A stretch of DNA of 64,000 bases from an uncultured Acidobacteriota bacterium (GCA_963836075.1 CAWIIB010000009.1:2688001-2752000); one strand, 5' to 3'. Positions 18,897-29,478 are shown, numbered from the stretch's first letter. Made by a program: numbers and translations. The notes: a model not told the origin generated them from the letters alone.

Positions 18897-21185
18897 TTAG
18901 AAGGACCCGGCGGCCACGGCCGTACCGTGACGCCAAGTCTCGGGGAACGCCTGGAGGGTGAAAATCAGGCTGATATCGCCGTCAGCGTAGGTGTACGCCG
19001 CCACCCGGCAGTCGATACAGGGATCGGACCCGCCGCCCGCCAACAGATCGTCCCGCCCGTCGCCGTCCAGGTCGGAGCCGGCATGGATCCGGGCCCCGAA
19101 CCGCGCCTCCTCCAGCGGCCAGGCAAAGAAGGTCAGCCCCGGCAGTGGTGTCACGGCCCCGCCATCCACGTTCCAGCCGCGGATGTGGGCGCCGAAAATA
19201 GGCCCCGGCCCTGGTGCAGTGGCGATCTCGTCGATTCCATCCCCGTCGAGGTCGCCGCAGGCGACATTGACCCCGTATCTCAGGGTGCCGTAGGCAAAGA
19301 AACTGACTGCGGGAAGCGCAGTTGCCGTTCCGCCGTCCACGTTCCAGCCGCGGACGTGGGGGCCAAACACATCCCCCGGCCCGGCGCCGGTGACGATCTC
19401 GTCCACGCCATCGCCGTCAATATCGCCGCAGGCCACGTTGACCCCCCATCTGAGCGTACCGTAGGCGAAGTAGTTGACCCCGGCAAGCGGGCTCACCGTG
19501 CCGTCACCGCAGCTGAAACCCCGGACGTGGGGGCCGAATACGGGCCCCGGCCCGGAGCCGGTGACGATCTCGTCGGTCCCGTCCCCGTTCAGGTCGCCGG
19601 CGGCGACATTGACCCCCCAGCGGGGTGTGCCGTAGGCCTGGAAGCTCAGACCGGGCAGTGGGATCCCCTGGTGAGTGAAGACCCGCACGTACGGGCCGTA
19701 GATCGCCCCTGGCCCGGCCCCGGTGATGATCTTGTCCGTCCCGTTTCCATCAATGTCGCCACAGGCGAGGTTGACGCCATAGCGGTCGCCGCCATAGGCC
19801 GCGAACTCGACCGCGTGGACGGCATCCTGCTCCGCCGGGAAGCCCCGGACCAGCGGCGGATGAATGCCATCTCTCGCCGGTCCGGGCCCGGCCACCAGTT
19901 CCACCACCCGGTGGTGCCAGCCGAGGTCGGCCACGTCCCGGTCGGCCAGGCCGTCGGTCCTGGTGGTGCCGCGAGGTGAAACTCCCGCCGGATCGCCGGC
20001 ATCGAGGCAGGGGCTGTTCGTTGTCTGTCCGGCCGCTGTCTGGGAGAGGCAGTACCCGCCAGGGGGGCCTTCGGCGAAGAGCGGGTCGGCATCGATGTTC
20101 CCGGTTCCCGGCCAGCCGTCCTGCACGTCGGACCAACTGACCGAAGGGCTGACACCGGCGGCCACTTGGATTCCGTGCATCCCATGGCTGGCATGGTTGG
20201 CCCAGATGATGCTGCGGGTAACCGACAGGCTGTCACCGTCTTCGGCAAAGATCCCGGCTCCATCCCAGGCCTCGTTGACGGCCAAAGTGCAGCCATCAAC
20301 CACGGTTGCGGTTTCATCCCCGTGGTAGAGACCCGCGCCCTCCACCGCCGAGTTGCCGAAGATCAGGTTGTTCTCCAGGGTCAGCAGGCCCGACCCGCGA
20401 TGGCAGACTCCGCCACCCCAGCCATCGGAGTAGTTTTCGCTGATCACGCAACCGGTGACCGTCGGCGAAGCCTCGGAGAGGACATAGATCCCCCCGGCGT
20501 CGCCATACATCGAGCCGTTGCCATGGATCAGGCTGTCCCTGATCAGCGGGGCAGCGTCCGTCACATGGATCCCGCCACCGCCGCCGTAGGCGGTGATGTT
20601 CCACTGGATCGTGCAGTCGCTGAATTCCGGGGAGCCCACCCTCCCGCAGTAGACGCCGGCGCCGTAAACGGCGCTGCAGCCGTGGATCTTCAAGTTGCGC
20701 AGCCGTGCTGTCGTTGGTCCGGCCACATAGATGCCGCCCCCGGTTTCGGCGTGGCAGTTGTCGATGTCGCAGTTGCGGATGGTGGGGGAGGCGTCGCGGA
20801 TGTAGAAGCCGCCGCCCATCAGATGGTGATACCCGTTGCGGATGGTGAAGCCGTCCACCACCGTAACCGGCCCCTCACCGGTTTGGAAGCGGAACCCGTG
20901 GGCCTGCAACTCGGCATCGATGATACAGGCTTCCCGCCCGCCCTCGGAGACCAGGCGCACCTCCTTGCCGTGGAAATCGAGACGCCGGTTACCAGGGCCG
21001 CTGTAGGTGCCGTCGGCCACCAGCACCGTGTCGCCGTCCACGGCGGCGTCGAGGCCCTCCTGGATGGTGGTGTATTCGCCCGGGACACGGAGGATGGCGG
21101 CCGCTGACGGGAGATGGAAGGCTGCAAGACAGAACAGTATTCCGACCGCGAAGCCGGTGGACTGAAAATTGCTCGGCCGGATCAT
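18897..21185 (-). CDS. exported right-handed beta-helix (pectin-lyase-like) protein with C-terminal FG-GAP-like repeats
   Basis: Signal peptide; VPGEYTTIQEGLDAAVDGDTVLVADGTY; N.A..GGGI repeats; GNIDADPLF; repeats AYGT.RWGVNVA.GD.DGDG.DEIVTG.GPG. Confidence 0.88.
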   Translation of the reverse strand: MIRPSNFQSTGFAVGILFCLAAFHLPSAAAILRVPGEYTTIQEGLDAAVDGDTVLVADGTYSGPGNRRLDFHGKEVRLVSEGGREACIIDAELQAHGFRFQTGEGPVTVVDGFTIRNGYHHLMGGGFYIRDASPTIRNCDIDNCHAETGGGIYVAGPTTARLRNLKIHGCSAVYGAGVYCGRVGSPEFSDCTIQWNITAYGGGGGIHVTDAAPLIRDSLIHGNGSMYGDAGGIYVLSEASPTVTGCVISENYSDGWGGGVCHRGSGLLTLENNLIFGNSAVEGAGLYHGDETATVVDGCTLAVNEAWDGAGIFAEDGDSLSVTRSIIWANHASHGMHGIQVAAGVSPSVSWSDVQDGWPGTGNIDADPLFAEGPPGGYCLSQTAAGQTTNSPCLDAGDPAGVSPRGTTRTDGLADRDVADLGWHHRVVELVAGPGPARDGIHPPLVRGFPAEQDAVHAVEFAAYGGDRYGVNLACGDIDGNGTDKIITGAGPGAIYGPYVRVFTHQGIPLPGLSFQAYGTPRWGVNVAAGDLNGDGTDEIVTGSGPGPVFGPHVRGFSCGDGTVSPLAGVNYFAYGTLRWGVNVACGDIDGDGVDEIVTGAGPGDVFGPHVRGWNVDGGTATALPAVSFFAYGTLRYGVNVACGDLDGDGIDEIATAPGPGPIFGAHIRGWNVDGGAVTPLPGLTFFAWPLEEARFGARIHAGSDLDGDGRDDLLAGGGSDPCIDCRVAAYTYADGDISLIFTLQAFPETWRHGTAVAAGSF

Positions 21186-22057: not shown

Positions 22058-23771
22058 CTACTCCCCGTTGTTCTTCAGCAGGCGGTAGTTGCGGCGCCGG
22101 GCGATGGGTTTGGGGTAGGGGTAGTCGGTCTTGCGCAGCAGCAGCTCCTCCACGCTGTCCGGGTCGCCGGCGCCCTGCTCGGCGGCCTGGGCGGTGATGG
22201 AATCCAGGTTGGACAACAGCACCCGCACCAGTTCCGGGTCGAGAACGCTCCCCGACAGCTGCTCCAGTTCGGTGGCTGCCGATTCCAGCAGCTCGGCGGA
22301 CGGCCGGAGGTGCGAACCGGTGAGCAGGTCAAAGGTGCGGCAGAGGGCCAGAATCCTCGAGCCCAGAGGGATCTCCCGCCCGCGGAGCCGGTGCGGGGCT
22401 CCGGAGCCGTCGTAGTGCTCTCCCTGGTGGCGAATAATCCGCAGGGCTTCTTCGGGCAGACCCAGCGGCCGGAGAATCTCCACCCCCCGTTCCACCGGGT
22501 CAATGCCCGGGATGTCTGCGTTGCCGGCAGCGGAATCGCCAAAGGCCCCCACCTCGTGCAGCAGGGCGGAGGTACTTGAGCACCCGGATGCTCTGCGGCT
22601 TGGAGAGCAGGCGCCGGCCCAGCTCCACGGCATAGAGCGCGGTGTGGCGGCAGCGGGTGCGGGTGGCCGGGTCGTGCAGGCCCAGGGCCCGCAGCAGCGC
22701 TGACACCGCGCCGGCCAGGTGGTGCTGTTTGACCTGGGGTACCAATTGCGACGCGCTGGCCTTTCTCCGGGCCGGCTTGTCGTGGCTCTGCGGCTTCCAG
22801 CGCATGCTGCTGGTGATGAACTCCAGGTTGTTTTTCTGGCTGCAGAGGAAGTAGCGGTTGCGCCCCATCTTCTGCACCGAGGCCAAGGCGCTCTCGGCCA
22901 GGGCCAGCAGCTGTTCCGGGCGCTCCAGGTGGTTGTGCGGGTAGCAGGAGATGCCCAGGGTGATGGTCAGCGGCGGGGTGAAGCGCTCCCGGCCGGAAAA
23001 GTGGGCCTGGATGCTCTCGCGGACCCGCTCGGCAAAGGCGATGGCCCCGGGGACCTCGGTGTTGGGCAGCAGGATGCCGAATCGTCCCTCGGCCACGTGG
23101 GCCAGGATGTTGTTGCCCCGGGAGGTCCGGGCCAGCACCCGGGCGACGCTCTCGATGGCCGCGTCGCGCTCGAAGAGGCCCGTTTTCCGTTCGATGGCCT
23201 GCAGCCCGTCCACCTCGGCCACGATGCAGGAGAGCGGCTCCTTGAACCGCTCCACCCGTTTGAACTCCTCCTGGAGCCGGCGCACCAGGTAGTTGCGGTT
23301 GTAGAAACCGGTCTGGTCGTCGAGGAAGCGTTTGTCTTCGGGGAGCGGTTCGGTGGCCTGCTCCATCCTCCGCTTGAGACCGCAGAGATACTGGAGGCGC
23401 AGGGTCACTTCCTGCCGGTCGAAGGGCTTTTGCTGCACGCCGTCGGCGCCGGAGCGCACCGCTTCCAGGCGGGGTTTTACCCCCCGGCCGCCGTGGAGGT
23501 AGAGCAGCGGCACGTAGGGCAGGTTGGTGCCGTCAAAGGCGGTGCGGATTTTTGAGCTGAGGCTCAACGCCTGCCGGGTGGTCAGCCGCTCGCTGAGCAC
23601 GACGCAGTCCGGGCCCAGACGGCGGATCTCGTCCAGCAGGGCATCGTCGGTTCGGGGCGTGCAGAAGCGAAACCCCTCATCCTCCAGGGATTGCGCCAGC
23701 TGATCCACGAACCCGCTCCGCTCACCGATCACCAGGATGGTATGCTCCCGGTTCTGGTTGTGATCGCTCAT
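22058..23771 (-). CDS. REC-GGDEF-HD-GYP protein, degenerate motifs, apparent frameshift near 22571
   Basis: DDQTGFYNRNYL, AEGRF in place of GGDEF, TITLGI; HD-GYP-like ALLHEVG, EHYDGSGAP..LRGREIPLGSRIL in a second frame. Confidence 0.8.
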
Positions 23772-24283: not shown

Positions 24284-24483
24284 ATCGGCCGGCTCCGGAT
24301 GCCCCGCACCCCGGGGGGCGAATATTTTCATGAAATATTTGATTTCCGGTTTTGCTGATGATAGACTCCCCCTCTTTGAATGTTCGGCTGTTTTTCGGCA
24401 AGTATGCCTTATGAATATATTTGCCTTGAGGTAATTTTTTTCACACGAGGGGCTCTCGAAACCTGGAAGGGGCTGATTTCTGA

Positions 24484-24684
24484 ATGGAGAACCCGCTGGA
24501 AGTAAAGGTTCAGGATGACCTGGAAAAGGCCATCCGGGTGCTGAAACGGAAGATTGCGCGCAACGGTATTCTCAAGGAGCTGAAGAAACGACGGTTCTAC
24601 GAGAAGCCCAGCGAGCGGCGCAAACGCAAACGGATGGAAGCTGCCAAACGCCGCAAGAAAGCGATGCGGACGGGCCGCTATTGA
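24484..24684 (+). CDS. rpsU: 30S ribosomal protein S21
   Basis: LEKAIRVLKRK..GILKELKKRRFYEKPSERRKRK. Confidence 0.95.
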   Translation: MENPLEVKVQDDLEKAIRVLKRKIARNGILKELKKRRFYEKPSERRKRKRMEAAKRRKKAMRTGRY

Positions 24685-24693
24685 TCCTGGCGG

Positions 24694-24742
24694 AAAAGAA
24701 CCGGTAACGACGCCCTGGGCTCTCGTCACCGGTTCTTTTTTT
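24694..24742 (+). terminator. intrinsic terminator after rpsU
   Basis: AAAAGAACCGGTAACGA...TCGTCACCGGTTCTTTTTTT stem plus U-tract. Confidence 0.8.
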
Positions 24743-24783
24743 GTCCGGACGTACCGCAGGCGCCGGTATTGATGGGTGGGAAG

Positions 24784-26190
24784 ATGTCGAAGATGGCCGG
24801 GGATGCCGCCGACGATCCCTATCGCGGGTATCGCGGGGCGGCCAGGGATAAGCTGGAAGCATGCGGTGTGCGGGTCTGGAGCGAAGTGACCGCCGACACC
24901 ACCAGGGGCGGGTTCCGGGGAATCGTCCTGCCGCGATCCGAAACCGCCGACGACCGTCACGTGGTGCTCAAGCTGAAGACCGGGTACAACGTGGGCCTGG
25001 AAGTGGACTCCATCCTGGCGATGGAGGAAAAGGGCTACCGCAAGATCACCTATAAAATCCCGGCCAAGGATGTGCCCCACAACCCGGACCTGCCCAACGT
25101 GACCCTCTTCGGCACCGGCGGCACCATCGCCAGCCGTCTGGACTACCGCACCGGCGCGGTGATCCCGGCCTTTTCACCGGGCGAGCTCTATGGCGCCGTC
25201 CCAGAGCTGGCCGAGATCTGCAACCTGAAGACCATCAAACTCTACGGCGAGTTCAGCGAGAACATCGGCCCCGAGCACTGGAAGGGCACCGCCGAGGCCG
25301 TGGCCCGCGAGATCGAGGCCGGCGCCGGGGGGATCGTCATCGGCCACGGCACCGACACCATGCATTTCACGGCGGCGGCGCTCTCCTTCATGCTCCAGGA
25401 CCCTCCGGTGCCGGTGGTGATGGTCGGCTCCCAGCGCTCCAGCGACCGTCCCTCCTCCGATGCCGCCCTCAACCTGATCAACGCCTCCCACGCCGCGGCC
25501 TATGGCGACATCGCCGAGGTGATGGTCTGCATGTTCGGGCCCACCAGCGACCAGTACGACCTGCTGCACCGCGGCACCCGGGTCAGGAAGATGCACTCCA
25601 GCTACCGCAGCACCTTCCGCACCATCGGTGACATCCCCCTGGCCATGATCTCCCCCGGCAACTACCGCATACTGCACAAGGAGGTCAAGAAACGGCGCAC
25701 GGACCGCTCCGTGAAGCTGAACACCAGCTTCGAGGAGAAGGTGGCGCTGGTCTCCTACTACCCCAACATGCAGCCCGACGTGCTGAACAGCCTGATCGAC
25801 AACGGCTATCGCGGCATCGTCATCGCCGGCACCGGGCTGGGCCACGTGAACAAGGTGGTCTACCCCGTGCTGCAGCGGGCCAGGGACGAGGGCGTGGCGG
25901 TCTACATGACGGTACAGACCCTCTGGGGCTACGTGCAGATGTATGTCTACGACACCGGGCGGGATATGATGGAGCTGGGAGTGATCCCGGCGGCCAACAT
26001 GCTGCCCGAGGTGGCCTATGTCAAGCTGGGCTGGGTGCTGGGCCAGACCGACGACCTGGACGAGGTGCGGCGGCTGATGCTCACCCCGGTGTCCCACGAG
26101 ATCACCGACCGCGAGCCGCCCAACGGCTACCTGATCTTGCAGGGCGGCATCCCCGAAGTGGAAGAGTACATTCTCAGTCACAGGAAATAG
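24784..26190 (+). CDS. gatD: Glu-tRNA(Gln) amidotransferase subunit D (archaeal type)
   Basis: GatD N-domain (GIVLPR..VVLKLKTGYNVG) plus asparaginase fold GTGGTIASRLDYRTGAV, HGTDTM, GSQRSSDRPSSD, RGTRVRKMHS, MLPEVAYVKL. Confidence 0.92.
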   Translation: MSKMAGDAADDPYRGYRGAARDKLEACGVRVWSEVTADTTRGGFRGIVLPRSETADDRHVVLKLKTGYNVGLEVDSILAMEEKGYRKITYKIPAKDVPHNPDLPNVTLFGTGGTIASRLDYRTGAVIPAFSPGELYGAVPELAEICNLKTIKLYGEFSENIGPEHWKGTAEAVAREIEAGAGGIVIGHGTDTMHFTAAALSFMLQDPPVPVVMVGSQRSSDRPSSDAALNLINASHAAAYGDIAEVMVCMFGPTSDQYDLLHRGTRVRKMHSSYRSTFRTIGDIPLAMISPGNYRILHKEVKKRRTDRSVKLNTSFEEKVALVSYYPNMQPDVLNSLIDNGYRGIVIAGTGLGHVNKVVYPVLQRARDEGVAVYMTVQTLWGYVQMYVYDTGRDMMELGVIPAANMLPEVAYVKLGWVLGQTDDLDEVRRLMLTPVSHEITDREPPNGYLILQGGIPEVEEYILSHRK

Positions 26191-26203
26191 ACGGCGGCTT
26201 TGA

Positions 26204-28171
26204 TCAGCAGCCCAGCCTGGCGGCCAGCAGTTCCGCGGCCTGGCGGCCGGGGACCCGTCCGCCCACCCGGGACATCAGCAGGCCCATGGTGTGGCGCTGC
26301 CGCTGTGCCGGTCCGGCAAAGGGGATCTCCGCGGTGAGCGCCAGGGCGGCGTCCGCCTCGGTTTCCAGATCGGGCAGCGGTTGCCGGGGGTCGAGACCCA
26401 GGCCCTGGAGGGCCTGGTCCAGCGCCCCGTCACCATCCCCGCCGCTGGCGGTTTCGGCGAGCAGCGGCAGCAGCGGCCGCAGGGCTTCGGGGTAGAGCTT
26501 TTTCTCGGCCAGCAGGCGGAAGAGCTGGAAGAGATCGTCGTCGGTGATGCTCTGCACCCGGTTGGTGAGGCGGGCGGCATGCTTCAGTTCTTCCAGCAGA
26601 GTGGAGGCCACCAGCCGCGGATCCAGATCCAGCCGGGACAAGACCTGTTCGGCCAGCGCCCCCCGTGGTGAGACGGCCAGGGCGCGGGCCGCCGGGGCGG
26701 CCAGCCCCCGGACGGCAAAGGCTTCTTCGCGGTCCCACGGTTTCGAGTTCAGCACGGCGGTGATGCGGGCGATCCGGTCATCGCCGATGGCTTTTGGCGG
26801 CATGTCGGTGTCGGGATACATCCGGTCCGGCCCGGGAAGGATCCGTTCGAAGTCGGTCCGCCCGTCGGGCCGTGGCTGCCGGGTCTCGCTGGGCACGCCC
26901 TCGGCCGCTTCGGCGGCGCGGATCACCACTTCCTCGGCCGCGGTGGCGGTGTCTCTTTCCGGTCCCCAGACCAGGACCACGGCGTCGTCAGCGCCGGCGG
27001 AACACTCCTGCCGCACCTCGTCCCAGATCCGGCGGTCCGGCGCCCCGGCCGCCTCTCCGTCGGCCTGCTCGGCGTGGTAGAGGTTGGGCATCCGGTCGAG
27101 ACAGGCGATGACCCGCACCCGGCCGCCCAGCTCGTCGGCAAAGCAGGTTTCCGGCTGGGTGGGCCAGGGGAGGATCCCTTTGAACCCCTGCAGCCTGACA
27201 GCCCGGACGTTCAGCCCGGCATCGCCGTCCTCCGCCAGGTGCGTGCTGATCCTGCTGTCGCCGCCCCGGTGGCGGAAGAGGTCGGTGACCTCCACCGTGC
27301 TGTGGCCGTCTCCCTGCACCGATTCGGGGGTGATGCCGCGGGTCCGCAGTTCATCCCTGATGTCCAGCAGCGCCTTGTGCCGGTGGGCCTCCACCAGCAC
27401 CAGCTGCTCGATCAGCGGGATTCGCGACACCCCCTTGACCTCCACCCGGGTGGAGCCATCGATGCTCACGTTCACGTCCTGGCGGGCCGCTCCGGCGCCG
27501 CGCCGCACCTTGCCGGTGACCCGGGCCAGCCGGGCCAGCTCCCAGCCCACCGCCGCCGCTTCCTCGGGGGTGTACATTTCCGGTTCGGTCACCGTCTCGC
27601 AGAGCGGTATGCTCAACCGGTCGGTACGGTAGGTCATGATGTGGCCGATGTCGCTCACCTCGCGGCAGGCGTCCTCCTCCACGGCCAGCTGGCGGATGCC
27701 GATAGTCCGGCCGCGGAAGGGAATCCCGCCGTCCACGCCGATGATGGCCGTGCGCTGGAAGCCGGCGGGGATACTGCCGTCCAGATACTGCTTGCGGATG
27801 ATGTGGATTTCCCCCACCAGGCTGCAGCCGAGCATCAGGGCCAGCTCCAGCGCGATGTCCAGGGCCTGCTCGTTGAGCTCGAAGGGCGGGGCGTCGTCCA
27901 TCTCGTAGGTGCAGACCGACTCGCTGTTCAGGCGGTAGATCACATCCTTGCGGGTTTTGAACTCCATCAGCGCCGTGCCGTCGTATTCCCCCATCTCGGA
28001 GAGGGTGGGGCGCATGTGACGGAGCACCTCGGCGTCGAAGCGCTTGCTGTAGAGGCGCGCCGGGCAGCGGCAGAAGAGTTTTTTTTGGGTCAGCAGCTGC
28101 TGGTGGATTTCCAGGCCGCAGCGGAAGCCCAGCCCCCGGAAAGCGCTGTCGGACAGAAGCTGAAAGCTCAA
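26204..28171 (-). CDS. gatE: Glu-tRNA(Gln) amidotransferase subunit E (archaeal type)
   Basis: GLEIHQQL..KKLFCRCP, RPTLSEMGEYD, DGSIPAGFQRT, EEDACR, RQDVNVSI, RVEVKGV, insertion domain, VPSETR, LPGPDRMYPDTDMPP; TTG start after GGGAGGGAG. Confidence 0.92.
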   Translation of the reverse strand: MSFQLLSDSAFRGLGFRCGLEIHQQLLTQKKLFCRCPARLYSKRFDAEVLRHMRPTLSEMGEYDGTALMEFKTRKDVIYRLNSESVCTYEMDDAPPFELNEQALDIALELALMLGCSLVGEIHIIRKQYLDGSIPAGFQRTAIIGVDGGIPFRGRTIGIRQLAVEEDACREVSDIGHIMTYRTDRLSIPLCETVTEPEMYTPEEAAAVGWELARLARVTGKVRRGAGAARQDVNVSIDGSTRVEVKGVSRIPLIEQLVLVEAHRHKALLDIRDELRTRGITPESVQGDGHSTVEVTDLFRHRGGDSRISTHLAEDGDAGLNVRAVRLQGFKGILPWPTQPETCFADELGGRVRVIACLDRMPNLYHAEQADGEAAGAPDRRIWDEVRQECSAGADDAVVLVWGPERDTATAAEEVVIRAAEAAEGVPSETRQPRPDGRTDFERILPGPDRMYPDTDMPPKAIGDDRIARITAVLNSKPWDREEAFAVRGLAAPAARALAVSPRGALAEQVLSRLDLDPRLVASTLLEELKHAARLTNRVQSITDDDLFQLFRLLAEKKLYPEALRPLLPLLAETASGGDGDGALDQALQGLGLDPRQPLPDLETEADAALALTAEIPFAGPAQRQRHTMGLLMSRVGGRVPGRQAAELLAARLGC

Positions 28172-28254
28172 CGGATCTCCCTCCCGGCCACCATTTTCCC
28201 CGGCGGCACGCTGTCCCGAGCCGGTCAATGCCCGGCAGGGGTGCAAGCCGCGCT

Positions 28255-28283
28255 ATCTTAAATGGGGCCCGGCGGAGTGTCAA
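28255..28283 (-). promoter_or_regulatory. sigma70 promoter of gatE
   Basis: TTGACA-N17-TAAGAT on the minus strand. Confidence 0.65.
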
Positions 28284-28653
28284 GATTTCCCGTTGCCGCG
28301 ATGCGAAGAAGAGACTTGACATCCGGACGCCGCGGACCAATATTAGATCCTGTCAGCGCACCCTGCTCGAAAAGCGACTGTTCGACTCCCGGCCCCGCCA
28401 TCCGGATGAGCCTTGTCTGCTGTCCCTGCTGCTCCAACGGGCCGCCAACCCGTGCCAACTGAATTTTCCAGGTTGACATAATTATCGTTAATGAAGGTCA
28501 CCTGCTGTTCCGATAGGAGGAGCAAGGGTGTAGTGACCGCTCCACGGTAGCAGTGGAGACGTGTTTCCCGGTGCAGTGTCCGACGAATTCGCTCTCACAA
28601 CCGAATTCAATACTTATCTGTTTTGCGTTTCCGTAAAGCGGAAGGTGTCACCA

Positions 28654-29478
28654 ATGAAAGACACAACCAAGCAGGAACAAAGTGTCGAGGACCGGTCCGG
28701 CATTGTCGGCTCAATCCGGACCGACAAACTGAAACCGCTGGCCAGTCCTCTTGAGCGGCGCGGGAGCGGTCCGCTCACCGCCGCCGAGCAGCTGCGACAG
28801 CGTGAACGCCTGACCGCCATCGGCGAGATGGCCACCACGCTGGTCCACGAGATCAAGGCCCCGCTCAATGCCATTGGCGGGTTTGCCCGGTCGATGCTGA
28901 AGAACAACACCGGTCCGGTCTCCAACAAGGAACCGCTGGGCATCATCGTCAACGAGGTGTCCCGGCTGGAGCAGTTGCTCGACAACGTCATCGGCTTCGC
29001 CAACCCCGAGCGGATGCAGCTGGTGTCCTGCTCGATCAACCGCCTGGTGGCCGAGACCGCGGCGATCCTGGGGCCGATGTGCCGGGAGTCGAAGATCGAG
29101 GTGCGGATGGCTCTGGCCGAGGATCTGCCCGATCTGCTGCTGGACCGCAACCAGGTCCACCAGGTGCTGGAGAACCTCTGCGCCAACGCCAAGCAGGCCA
29201 TGCCCCGCGGCGGCGAGATTTCCGTGACCACCCGCCTGGTGGGCCGGGAAGTGGAGGTGCGGGTGGTGGACACGGGCCACGGCATCCCGCAGCTGCTGCA
29301 CCGGCGGGTCTTCGAGCCCTTCTATTCCACCCGCAGCATGGGAACCGGCCTGGGACTGGCGGTGACGGCGCGGGTGATGGCCGGCCATGGCGGATCGGCC
29401 TTCCTCGACGGCACGGTGACCGACGGCGCGGCCTTCTGCCTCCGTTTTCCTGTTCCGCAGACCACCCGTGGTGCATAG
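28654..29478 (+). CDS. cytoplasmic histidine kinase (HisKA + HATPase only)
   Basis: ERLTAIGEMATTLVHEIKAPL, NLCANAKQAM, DTGHGI, FEPFYST, GTGLGL. Confidence 0.9.
   Translation: MKDTTKQEQSVEDRSGIVGSIRTDKLKPLASPLERRGSGPLTAAEQLRQRERLTAIGEMATTLVHEIKAPLNAIGGFARSMLKNNTGPVSNKEPLGIIVNEVSRLEQLLDNVIGFANPERMQLVSCSINRLVAETAAILGPMCRESKIEVRMALAEDLPDLLLDRNQVHQVLENLCANAKQAMPRGGEISVTTRLVGREVEVRVVDTGHGIPQLLHRRVFEPFYSTRSMGTGLGLAVTARVMAGHGGSAFLDGTVTDGAAFCLRFPVPQTTRGA

Follow-up and report, generated by a model that had tools for sequence, protein, structure and literature searches.

The stretch of DNA studied here, referred to as the window, consists of 64,000 nucleotides (nt) from an uncultured Acidobacteriota bacterium (C9:2688001-2752000), and it contains two convergent genes, gatD and gatE, for the two subunits of a GatDE-type Glu-tRNA(Gln) amidotransferase. 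In reviews, GatDE is called an archaeal signature protein, found in archaea only. A first-pass annotation made from the sequence alone had described a full-length gatD on the plus strand and a full-length gatE on the minus strand, with stop codons 13 nt apart, and both the reading frames and the cut-offs of curated protein families agree with that description. The features of the locus are summarized in Table 1. The open frame of gatD extends back to a TTG at 24769. That of gatE is open up to 28246 on the minus strand, giving a length of 655-680 codons depending on the start, and the TTG at 28171, which is located downstream of a GGAGG-like stretch, is the likely start codon.

Table 1. Coordinates of the gatD-gatE pair and adjoining features, counted from the first nucleotide of the window.
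Feature	Position	Strand	Description
gatD	24784-26190	+	468 aa; predicted glutaminase subunit, with a GatD N-terminal domain and two type-I-asparaginase domains
gatE	26204-28171	-	655 aa from TTG at 28171; predicted kinase/transamidase and tRNA-binding subunit
Spacer	26191-26203		13 nt between convergent stops; stop codons end at 26190 and 26204
Sigma-70-like promoter match	28283-28255	-	TTGACA-17-TAAGAT, 10/12 positions, upstream of gatE; consensus match only
rpsU	24484-24684	+	ribosomal protein S21; Pfam Ribosomal_S21 70.8 bits; upstream neighbour of gatD
Hairpin with U-run	24691-24747	+	intrinsic-terminator-like, between rpsU and gatD; -28.5 kcal/mol, z = -4.29

The identity of both proteins was evaluated with family models. 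GatD scored 519.5 bits with TIGR02153 (cut-off 324) and 512.5 bits with NF003217 (cut-off 310), above the 386.7 and 143.8 bits obtained with the type I and type II asparaginase models, and the Pfam domain GatD_N (44.2 bits, cut-off 25.7) was found before Asparaginase and Asparaginase_C. GatE scored 478.1 bits with NF003107 (cut-off 456, a narrow margin) and 396.4 bits with TIGR00134 (cut-off 319.55), and its best score with a GatB model was 124.6 bits (cut-off 338). The first-pass annotation had named grouping with GatB and type I asparaginase as the outcome that would speak against it; instead, the GatD and GatE equivalog models gave the best scores, and the structural comparisons agree. As judged from these models and alignments, the two genes encode a true GatD and a true GatE, rather than a GatB or a plain asparaginase.

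Concerning the active sites, GatD aligned to the solved archaeal chains 2d6f_A and 1zq1_A with 424.8 and 414.4 bits, respectively. Its motifs TGGTIAS, HGTDTM and RKMH, which contain the residues that we take to be catalytic, are identical or nearly so in both alignments. Asparaginase-type glutaminases are described as having a Thr nucleophile and a Thr-Lys-Asp triad (PMC2330236). In the GatE of Methanothermobacter thermautotrophicus the Mg ligands are His15, Glu157 and Glu184, and their mutation kills the enzyme (PMC2330236). In an alignment to 2d6f_C these residues correspond to H23, E165 and E192 of the window GatE, and the equivalent positions were invariant in 33/33 aligned GatE proteins of the clade designated below as type B. 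The window protein matches the GatE proteins of Pyrococcus abyssi and M. thermautotrophicus over its full length (the alignment to 1zq1_C spans residues 11-647), with 293 and 324 bits to the solved chains (2D6F, 1ZQ1).

An AlphaFold model of GatE had a predicted local distance difference test (pLDDT) score of 82.5 and a predicted template modelling (TM) score of 0.81. Its top structural match was 1zq1_C (E 9.8e-39, TM 0.79), followed by 2d6f and by GatB chains, with weak AspRS matches thereafter; the TM scores were 0.74-0.79 for archaeal GatE and 0.55-0.73 for GatB. The domain plan of the family was found in the protein: a cradle, an AspRS-like insertion and a C-terminal helical part with a YqeY-like tail, residues 460-655 forming a domain modelled as helical at a pLDDT of about 90 or higher. 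The YqeY-like tail contacts the tRNA D-loop in known enzymes (PMC2330236). The Pfam domain GAD was not detected in the window GatE. A cysteine cluster (FCxC...C) that was considered, by comparison with P. abyssi, as a mark of type-B GatE was discarded, as it occurs also in type-A GatE. In summary, the pair shares with the archaeal enzymes of M. thermautotrophicus (2D6F) and P. abyssi (1ZQ1) the same subunits, domain order, Mg ligands and asparaginase-type motifs.

In three genomes of the genus (G000, G007 and G026), neither reading frame is interrupted. The ratio of nonsynonymous to synonymous substitution rates (dN/dS), estimated against a contig of the same genus (L020), was 0.10 for gatD and 0.25 for gatE. 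Within GatE it differed by domain: the catalytic cradle had values of 0.13 and 0.05, the AspRS-like insertion 0.37, and the helical part plus tail 0.46. The genes are under purifying selection and keep their catalytic residues, i.e., they look functional.

The host, described as a sediment bacterium, has a genome assembly of 6.23 Mb in 10 contigs, 94.7% complete and with an estimated contamination of 4.61%, where C9 is a contig of 3.52 Mb. With a transfer-messenger RNA (tmRNA) gene, 54 tRNA genes, ribosomal protein S21, bacterial aminoacyl-tRNA synthetases and GatCAB, the host is a bacterium. The genome contains the other routes to Gln-tRNA(Gln): a glutaminyl-tRNA synthetase (GlnRS; 732.4 bits, cut-off 425.8) encoded on the same contig as the window, gatB (515.6 bits), and a gatC (39.8 bits, below the 47.1 cut-off) placed just upstream of gatA. 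It also encodes an asparaginyl-tRNA synthetase (AsnRS) and two glutamyl-tRNA synthetases (GluRS; 497.6 and 452 bits). In this assembly (G000), gatA (C9:2934320-2935709) and asnS (C9:2336284-2337553) are each split over two adjacent frames. In the same-genus genome G007 gatA (551 bits) and asnS are intact, and because same-genus genomes have intact genes the splits are read as indel errors of the assembly. The inventory of glnS, gatCAB and gltX that the first-pass annotation had proposed found them all, so that the displacement of the bacterial route that it had envisaged does not apply to this genome.

Adapted identity elements in tRNA(Gln), which had also been anticipated, were not found either. 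Both tRNA(Gln) genes (anticodons UUG and CUG) have the U1-A72 pair and G73 of the bacterial type. The tRNA(Asn) has U1-A72 too; in tRNA(Glu) and tRNA(Asp) the first base is G1. The archaeal GatDE of M. thermautotrophicus recognises A1-U72, while bacterial GatCAB recognises U1-A72 (PMC2330236), which is the pair of the host tRNA(Gln). So, if the window enzyme acts on tRNA(Gln), it is the enzyme that must have adapted. The comparison with GatCAB can be extended to the proteins: the net reaction on Glu-tRNA(Gln) is the same and GatE is a paralogue of the GatB subunit, but the glutaminase of GatCAB is the amidase GatA, unrelated to the asparaginase-like GatD, and there is a third subunit, GatC.

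The distribution of the pair was studied by searching species-representative genomes. At least 590 stretches encode a relative (590 of the 599 candidates listed), and 80 loci with a GatD 67-94% identical to that of the window were kept. Their labels cover well over ten bacterial phyla, including Ignavibacteria, Melioribacter, Kapabacteria, Chlorobiota, Aminicenantes, Zixibacteria, Fermentibacteria, Latescibacteria, Caldithrix, Myxococcota and Nitrospinota, plus two Thermoplasmatota-labelled contigs (L085 and L086); relatives from a neighbouring cluster carry Phycisphaerae, Planctomycetota and Gemmatimonas labels. Among the best 120 protein relatives, the named ones at 71-74% identity are GatD according to NCBI or JGI, and the labels of metagenome-assembled genomes (MAGs) in this set include KSB1, Zhuqueibacterota, Calditrichaeota, Krumholzibacteriota, Tectomicrobia and Aminicenantes. 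The first-pass annotation rightly supposed that bacterial homologues might already sit in databases, but they are not sporadic, and the relatives bear mostly bacterial labels. A literature search, with subscription journals largely outside its reach, found no report of a bacterial GatDE. The window pair is an ordinary, intact member of this large clade, which is annotated in databases and for which we found no paper discussing it. In one relative (P0124, 943 aa, from the library of representative proteins), the catalytic part of a GatE (Pfam GatB_N, residues 24-304) at the N-terminus precedes a complete GatD (residues 491-936, with 59% identity to the window GatD), which could be either a natural GatE-GatD fusion or an artefact of gene calling.

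The phylogenetic trees that had been recommended as a check placed both proteins in one and the same clade, here called type B, formed by bacteria and some genomes labelled Thermoplasmatota. The GatD tree (106 rows, LG+G4, short search, rooted with three type-I asparaginases) has tentative deep joins, with support given by the Shimodaira-Hasegawa-like approximate likelihood ratio test (SH-aLRT). All its bacterial rows fall in a single clade of 47 rows (SH-aLRT 100), to which seven genomes of the Thermoplasmatota-labelled phylum contribute eight rows, two of them labelled (L085, L086) and six unlabelled (L117, L122, L127, L128, L129 and L131); the archaeal-labelled rows are basal or unresolved. 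In the GatE tree (69 rows), type B is one clade of 36 rows (support 100); its archaeal-labelled rows branch off at the base, and the bacteria group together (support 82). The annotated bacterial members, among them Ignavibacteria, Aminicenantes, Zixibacteria, KSB1/Zhuqueibacterota, Calditrichota, Fermentibacteria, Phycisphaerae, Gemmatimonas and others, form one clade in both trees, with GatD 67-74% and GatE 35-57% identical to those of the window. GatD and GatE co-occur and display the same clade structure. In our reading, the two subunits have travelled together.

The sister of type-B GatD is a clade of 13 rows that bears the labels Hodarchaeales, Hermodarchaeota, Heimdallarchaeota, Thorarchaeota and, once, Bathyarchaeia (support of the join, 84), so an Asgard sister group is weakly supported; the GatE tree leaves the relation of type B, type A and the Asgard-like clade unsettled. 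These Asgard proteins are the nearest archaeal GatD clade in the tree, with GatD 48-54% and GatE 25-38% identical to those of the window. The typical GatD of the Thermoplasmatota-labelled phylum, designated type A, lies upstream of gatE and is 37-48% identical to the window GatD, as is the case for the type-A GatD proteins compared. Three genomes of that phylum (G210, G252, G261) carry both types, and five others carry type B only. In the two-type genomes the type-A copies (L141, L142, L143) are 38-46% identical to the window GatD and are followed by gatE, and the type-B copies (L117, L131, L129) are 60-67% identical. An archaeal origin of type-B GatDE is likely from these trees, which fix neither the direction of transfer nor how many transfers took place. 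The first-pass proposal of an old, ameliorated transfer can be maintained as far as long residence is concerned, in view of the low dN/dS, the host-like GC content and the many phyla involved.

Concerning gene order, a GatE match was found in 75/80 related loci, and in nearly all of them gatE is directly upstream of gatD on the same strand. The order is the same in Asgard-like loci, where GatE was found in 61/80, about 2 kb upstream of gatD and in the same direction. The tail-to-tail order of the window was present in 2/80 related loci, the same-genus L020 and L021, a MAG with a Nitrospinota label, and these two are neighbours of the window in a 7-row clade of the GatD tree (support 99). Judging from this pattern, the tail-to-tail order is rare and is a derived inversion, not the ancestral state. 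In the type-B loci of the Thermoplasmatota-labelled phylum where gatE was found (L085, L086/L108, L127, L131), the two genes are divergent. One of these contigs has a glutamine synthetase gene (L086:1264-2562, minus strand) immediately after gatE and in the same orientation.

The co-occurrence of GatDE with other enzymes was examined in a sample of 201 genomes of the phylum of the window, the same in every search. GatD was over the cut-off in 39 of them, spread over at least 16 families. GlnRS was present in 143/201 genomes, i.e., in 35/39 of those with GatD and in 108/162 of those without it; the corresponding counts were 150/201, 15/39 and 135/162 for GatB and, by hand count, 87/201, 15/39 and 72/162 for two or more GluRS. 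These tallies include three genomes marked as unpublished (G024, G048 and G151), all without GatD; when they are left out, the GatD-negative counts become 132/159 for GatB, 106/159 for GlnRS and 70/159 for two or more GluRS. Of the 39 genomes with GatD, 11 have GlnRS and GatB, 24 have GlnRS only and four have GatB only. No statistical test was applied, because related genomes are not independent. GatDE tends to occur where GatCAB is not found, and a replacement of GatCAB by GatDE within the phylum is possible.

Considering all these results, the pair can be interpreted as a working bacterial GatDE that acts as an accessory Glu-tRNA(Gln) amidotransferase beside GlnRS and GatCAB, a reading to which we assign a probability of about 0.65. 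If it is built like the archaeal enzyme of known structure, a GatD dimer would carry two GatE subunits. GatD would hydrolyse Gln or Asn, the ammonia released would pass through a tunnel to GatE, and GatE would use ATP and Mg to phosphorylate the glutamate of Glu-tRNA(Gln) and amidate it to Gln-tRNA(Gln). The enzyme would mop up, or exploit, the Glu-tRNA(Gln) formed by a relaxed GluRS, for which the second, GluRS2-like copy is the most plausible candidate, and it is the enzyme, not the tRNA, that would have adapted to U1-A72. As to its history, the type-B clade may have spread across many bacterial phyla as well as some Thermoplasmatota-labelled genomes, and the inversion of one gene in this genus would have converted a gatE-gatD operon into the convergent pair.

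With regard to the source of Glu-tRNA(Gln), the GluRS encoded on C1 (C1:1158079-1159488) has Arg, and that encoded on C9 (C9:2597494-2598915) has Lys, at the GluRS1-type Arg position, a column that we presume, from other chains, to match Arg358 of Thermus thermophilus GluRS. Lys is also found in Thermotoga maritima chains named "Glutamyl-tRNA synthetase 2", including the glutamine transamidosome entry 3AL0. Arg358 is described as an anticodon-sensing position in relation to discriminating versus non-discriminating enzymes (PMC2978374). In two-copy genomes of the phylum, 6/6 with both GluRS compared had Arg in one copy and S, K, Y or N in the other, the latter being closer to the C9 copy. It is plausible that the second GluRS (C9, GluRS2-like) is the supplier of Glu-tRNA(Gln). 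On C1, within C1:1157766-1159488, one GluRS gene is directly beside tRNA-Gln(CUG) and tRNA-Glu(CUC) on the same strand. Neighbouring genes for GlnRS and GluRS, a few hundred bases apart, occur in many genomes of the phylum (e.g., G017:C2:214411-217658 and G035:C12:86365-89556).

Several observations weigh against an accessory amidotransferase of this kind. GatDE was the sole route to Gln-tRNA(Gln) in 0/39 GatD-bearing genomes, none of which was without both GlnRS and GatB, and in the host the presence of GlnRS and gatB departs from the archaeal system, in which GlnRS is lacking and GatDE is the sole route; nor does the U1-A72 pair of the host tRNA(Gln) conform to the archaeal A1-U72 rule. Extra GluRS copies were no commoner with GatD than without it, and a link of GatD to an extra copy was rejected for that reason. 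All 25 single-copy GluRS compared in the phylum have Arg, including five from genomes without GlnRS, so the Arg/non-Arg difference had to be abandoned as a test of GluRS discrimination and the residue is not diagnostic in the phylum. At the level of the genes, the operon is broken in this genus, with gatD and gatE sharing no transcript, and no long contig of the RNA run X20 covered gatE, which is no proof that gatE is silent. At the level of the protein, the Pfam domain GatB_Yqey reached 15.7 bits in the tail of the window GatE (cut-off 27), compared with 78.2, 38.8 and 25.8 bits in three relatives, and the tRNA-binding parts are the least constrained of the GatE of the genus.

An alternative suggested by the scarcity of GatB in genomes with GatD is that type-B GatDE amidates Asp-tRNA(Asn) besides, or instead of, Glu-tRNA(Gln), replacing GatCAB fully and providing tRNA-dependent asparagine synthesis. 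The sharing of U1-A72 by tRNA(Asn) and both tRNA(Gln), with G1 in tRNA(Asp) and tRNA(Glu), would suit such a dual specificity, as would the fast evolution of the tRNA-binding domains of GatE. Besides, three genomes 95-99% complete (G018, G166 and G064) have GatDE and AsnRS, and in them neither GatB nor an AsnB-type gene (E <= 1e-60) nor AsnA was found. However, AsnRS was over the cut-off in 38/38 other GatD-bearing genomes as well as in the window genome, AsnB-type genes occur in 17/25 genomes, with four in the window genome, and AsnA in 2/5 genomes tested. The AsnB-family matches include paralogues, and a missing match in a draft genome is not proof of absence. Furthermore, archaeal GatDE does not use Asp-tRNA(Asn) (PMC2330236). 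On balance, dual specificity seems to us unlikely.

It could also be thought that the GatDE of this genus has become redundant, that the constraint on it is weakening, and that it is on its way to being lost or no longer has tRNA activity, with GlnRS and GatCAB doing the work. The full redundancy in the genome, the split of the operon, the tail of GatE under the Pfam threshold and the dN/dS of its tRNA-binding domains are in line with this, and the stem branch of the genus in the GatE tree is long (0.52). Against it, neither frame is interrupted in any of the three genomes of the genus, all dN/dS values are far under 1 and those of the GatE domains are lowest in the catalytic cradle, all the Mg ligands are kept, and the tail of GatE is predicted as a confident helical domain. 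A decaying pair is, in our opinion, about as improbable as dual specificity.

Less probable still is a non-translational role, in which the pair would feed some other pathway with Gln-tRNA or with an amidated product, or would work as a regulated glutaminase/asparaginase. The fact that GatDE is never the sole Gln-tRNA(Gln) route in the 39 genomes, and the glutamine synthetase gene beside gatE in L086, could be taken in that sense. However, the whole tRNA-binding architecture of GatE is retained, and the neighbours that are informative are translation genes: S21 in the window, and S16, S30AE, EF-G and a release factor elsewhere. No partner was shared among 75 flanking open reading frames (ORFs) of 38 loci, whether non-translational or of any other kind. 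A linkage to conserved neighbours was therefore rejected, also considering that tRNA genes were near the pair in 3/80 loci and GlnRS in 1/80.

The possibility that archaeal DNA was misjoined to, or misbinned with, a bacterial genome, for which the contamination estimate and the few relatives with archaeal labels (L085, L086) might be invoked, can be practically dismissed: C9 carries also GlnRS, gatB, gatA and one of the two GluRS, the flanks of the pair are bacterial genes (S21, a GGDEF response regulator, a histidine kinase), and the same convergent pair is present in G007 and G026, of the same genus, and in the named MAG contig L020, with GatD 93-94% identical. Moreover, a 635-nt contig from a salt-marsh run of another study (X2) bridges the gatD/gatE junction (25992-26626, 29 differences). 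A chimeric contig, which the first-pass annotation had named as a second possible flaw, is at odds with these data.

Returning to the accessory amidotransferase, it can be placed in a wider account in which type-B GatDE is an old, distinct branch, possibly sister to the Asgard one, that reached bacteria by one transfer or a few, out of an archaeal line still seen in some Thermoplasmatota, switched to U1-A72 and now serves many phyla as an alternative to GatCAB. We hold this account tentatively, as a possibility with less than even chances. If it were true, tRNA-dependent amidation to Gln, and perhaps to Asn, would be kept alive in cells that own GlnRS and AsnRS, the term "archaeal signature protein" would be wrong, and indirect charging beside direct charging would become directly testable in bacteria. 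What is particular to the window is the convergent order, the fast-evolving tRNA-binding part of GatE and the presence of every known Gln-tRNA(Gln) route in one genome: most type-B relatives have gatE-gatD on one strand, while the genus of the window has them tail-to-tail with an unusually diverged GatE tail. The case is informative as GlnRS, GatCAB, AsnRS, two GluRS and GatDE coexist in one genome, and the enzyme it points to would have to read a tRNA(Gln) of bacterial type. The co-occurrence pattern makes it testable why cells owning the direct enzymes keep the indirect charging of tRNA.

Concerning the surroundings of the pair, the bacterial rpsU beside gatD, the GC content similar to that of the flanks and the match to a sigma-70 promoter upstream of gatE, all of them mentioned in the first-pass annotation, were observed. 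The GC fraction is 0.62 in gatD and 0.69 in gatE, compared with 0.61-0.73 across the window and 0.62-0.67 in the contigs of the genome. The promoter is a consensus match only, and there are two such matches within 24300-28700 (4.4 kb) versus 0.6 +/- 0.8 in shuffled sequences. Among the 80 related loci, a close S21 (98% identity) lies beside gatD only in the same-genus L020; the S21 of L079 is a distant match (35%) placed about 4 kb downstream. The hairpin between rpsU and gatD is a strong one, as 0/200 shuffles folded equally well, and because this hairpin with its U-run separates the two genes, gatD is probably not simply co-transcribed with rpsU. No terminator-like structure was found at the gatD/gatE junction (the fold of 26150-26250 had z = 0.32 versus shuffles), and a shared terminator for the convergent pair was rejected. 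Contigs of one metatranscriptome run match rpsU (24459-24706, three differences) and the 5' part of gatD (24813-25063, two differences); DNA can occur in RNA libraries, and this coverage gives a weak hint of expression.

Some minor observations were made on other parts of the window and of the genome. On the minus strand of the window, positions 18897-21185 encode a protein of 762 aa that contains a right-handed beta-helix and FG-GAP repeats, and positions 22058-23771 a response-regulator/GGDEF gene that overlaps an HD-domain ORF. ARAGORN called a tRNA-like gene of 98 nt with a four-base anticodon, aggg (C9:1307917-1308014), and three over-long tRNAs, for Lys (88 nt, C9:814130-814217), Gly (95 nt, C9:2348452-2348546) and Ile (94 nt, C9:2671687-2671780). 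These odd calls may be false, or they may correspond to intron-bearing genes or to unusual tRNAs.

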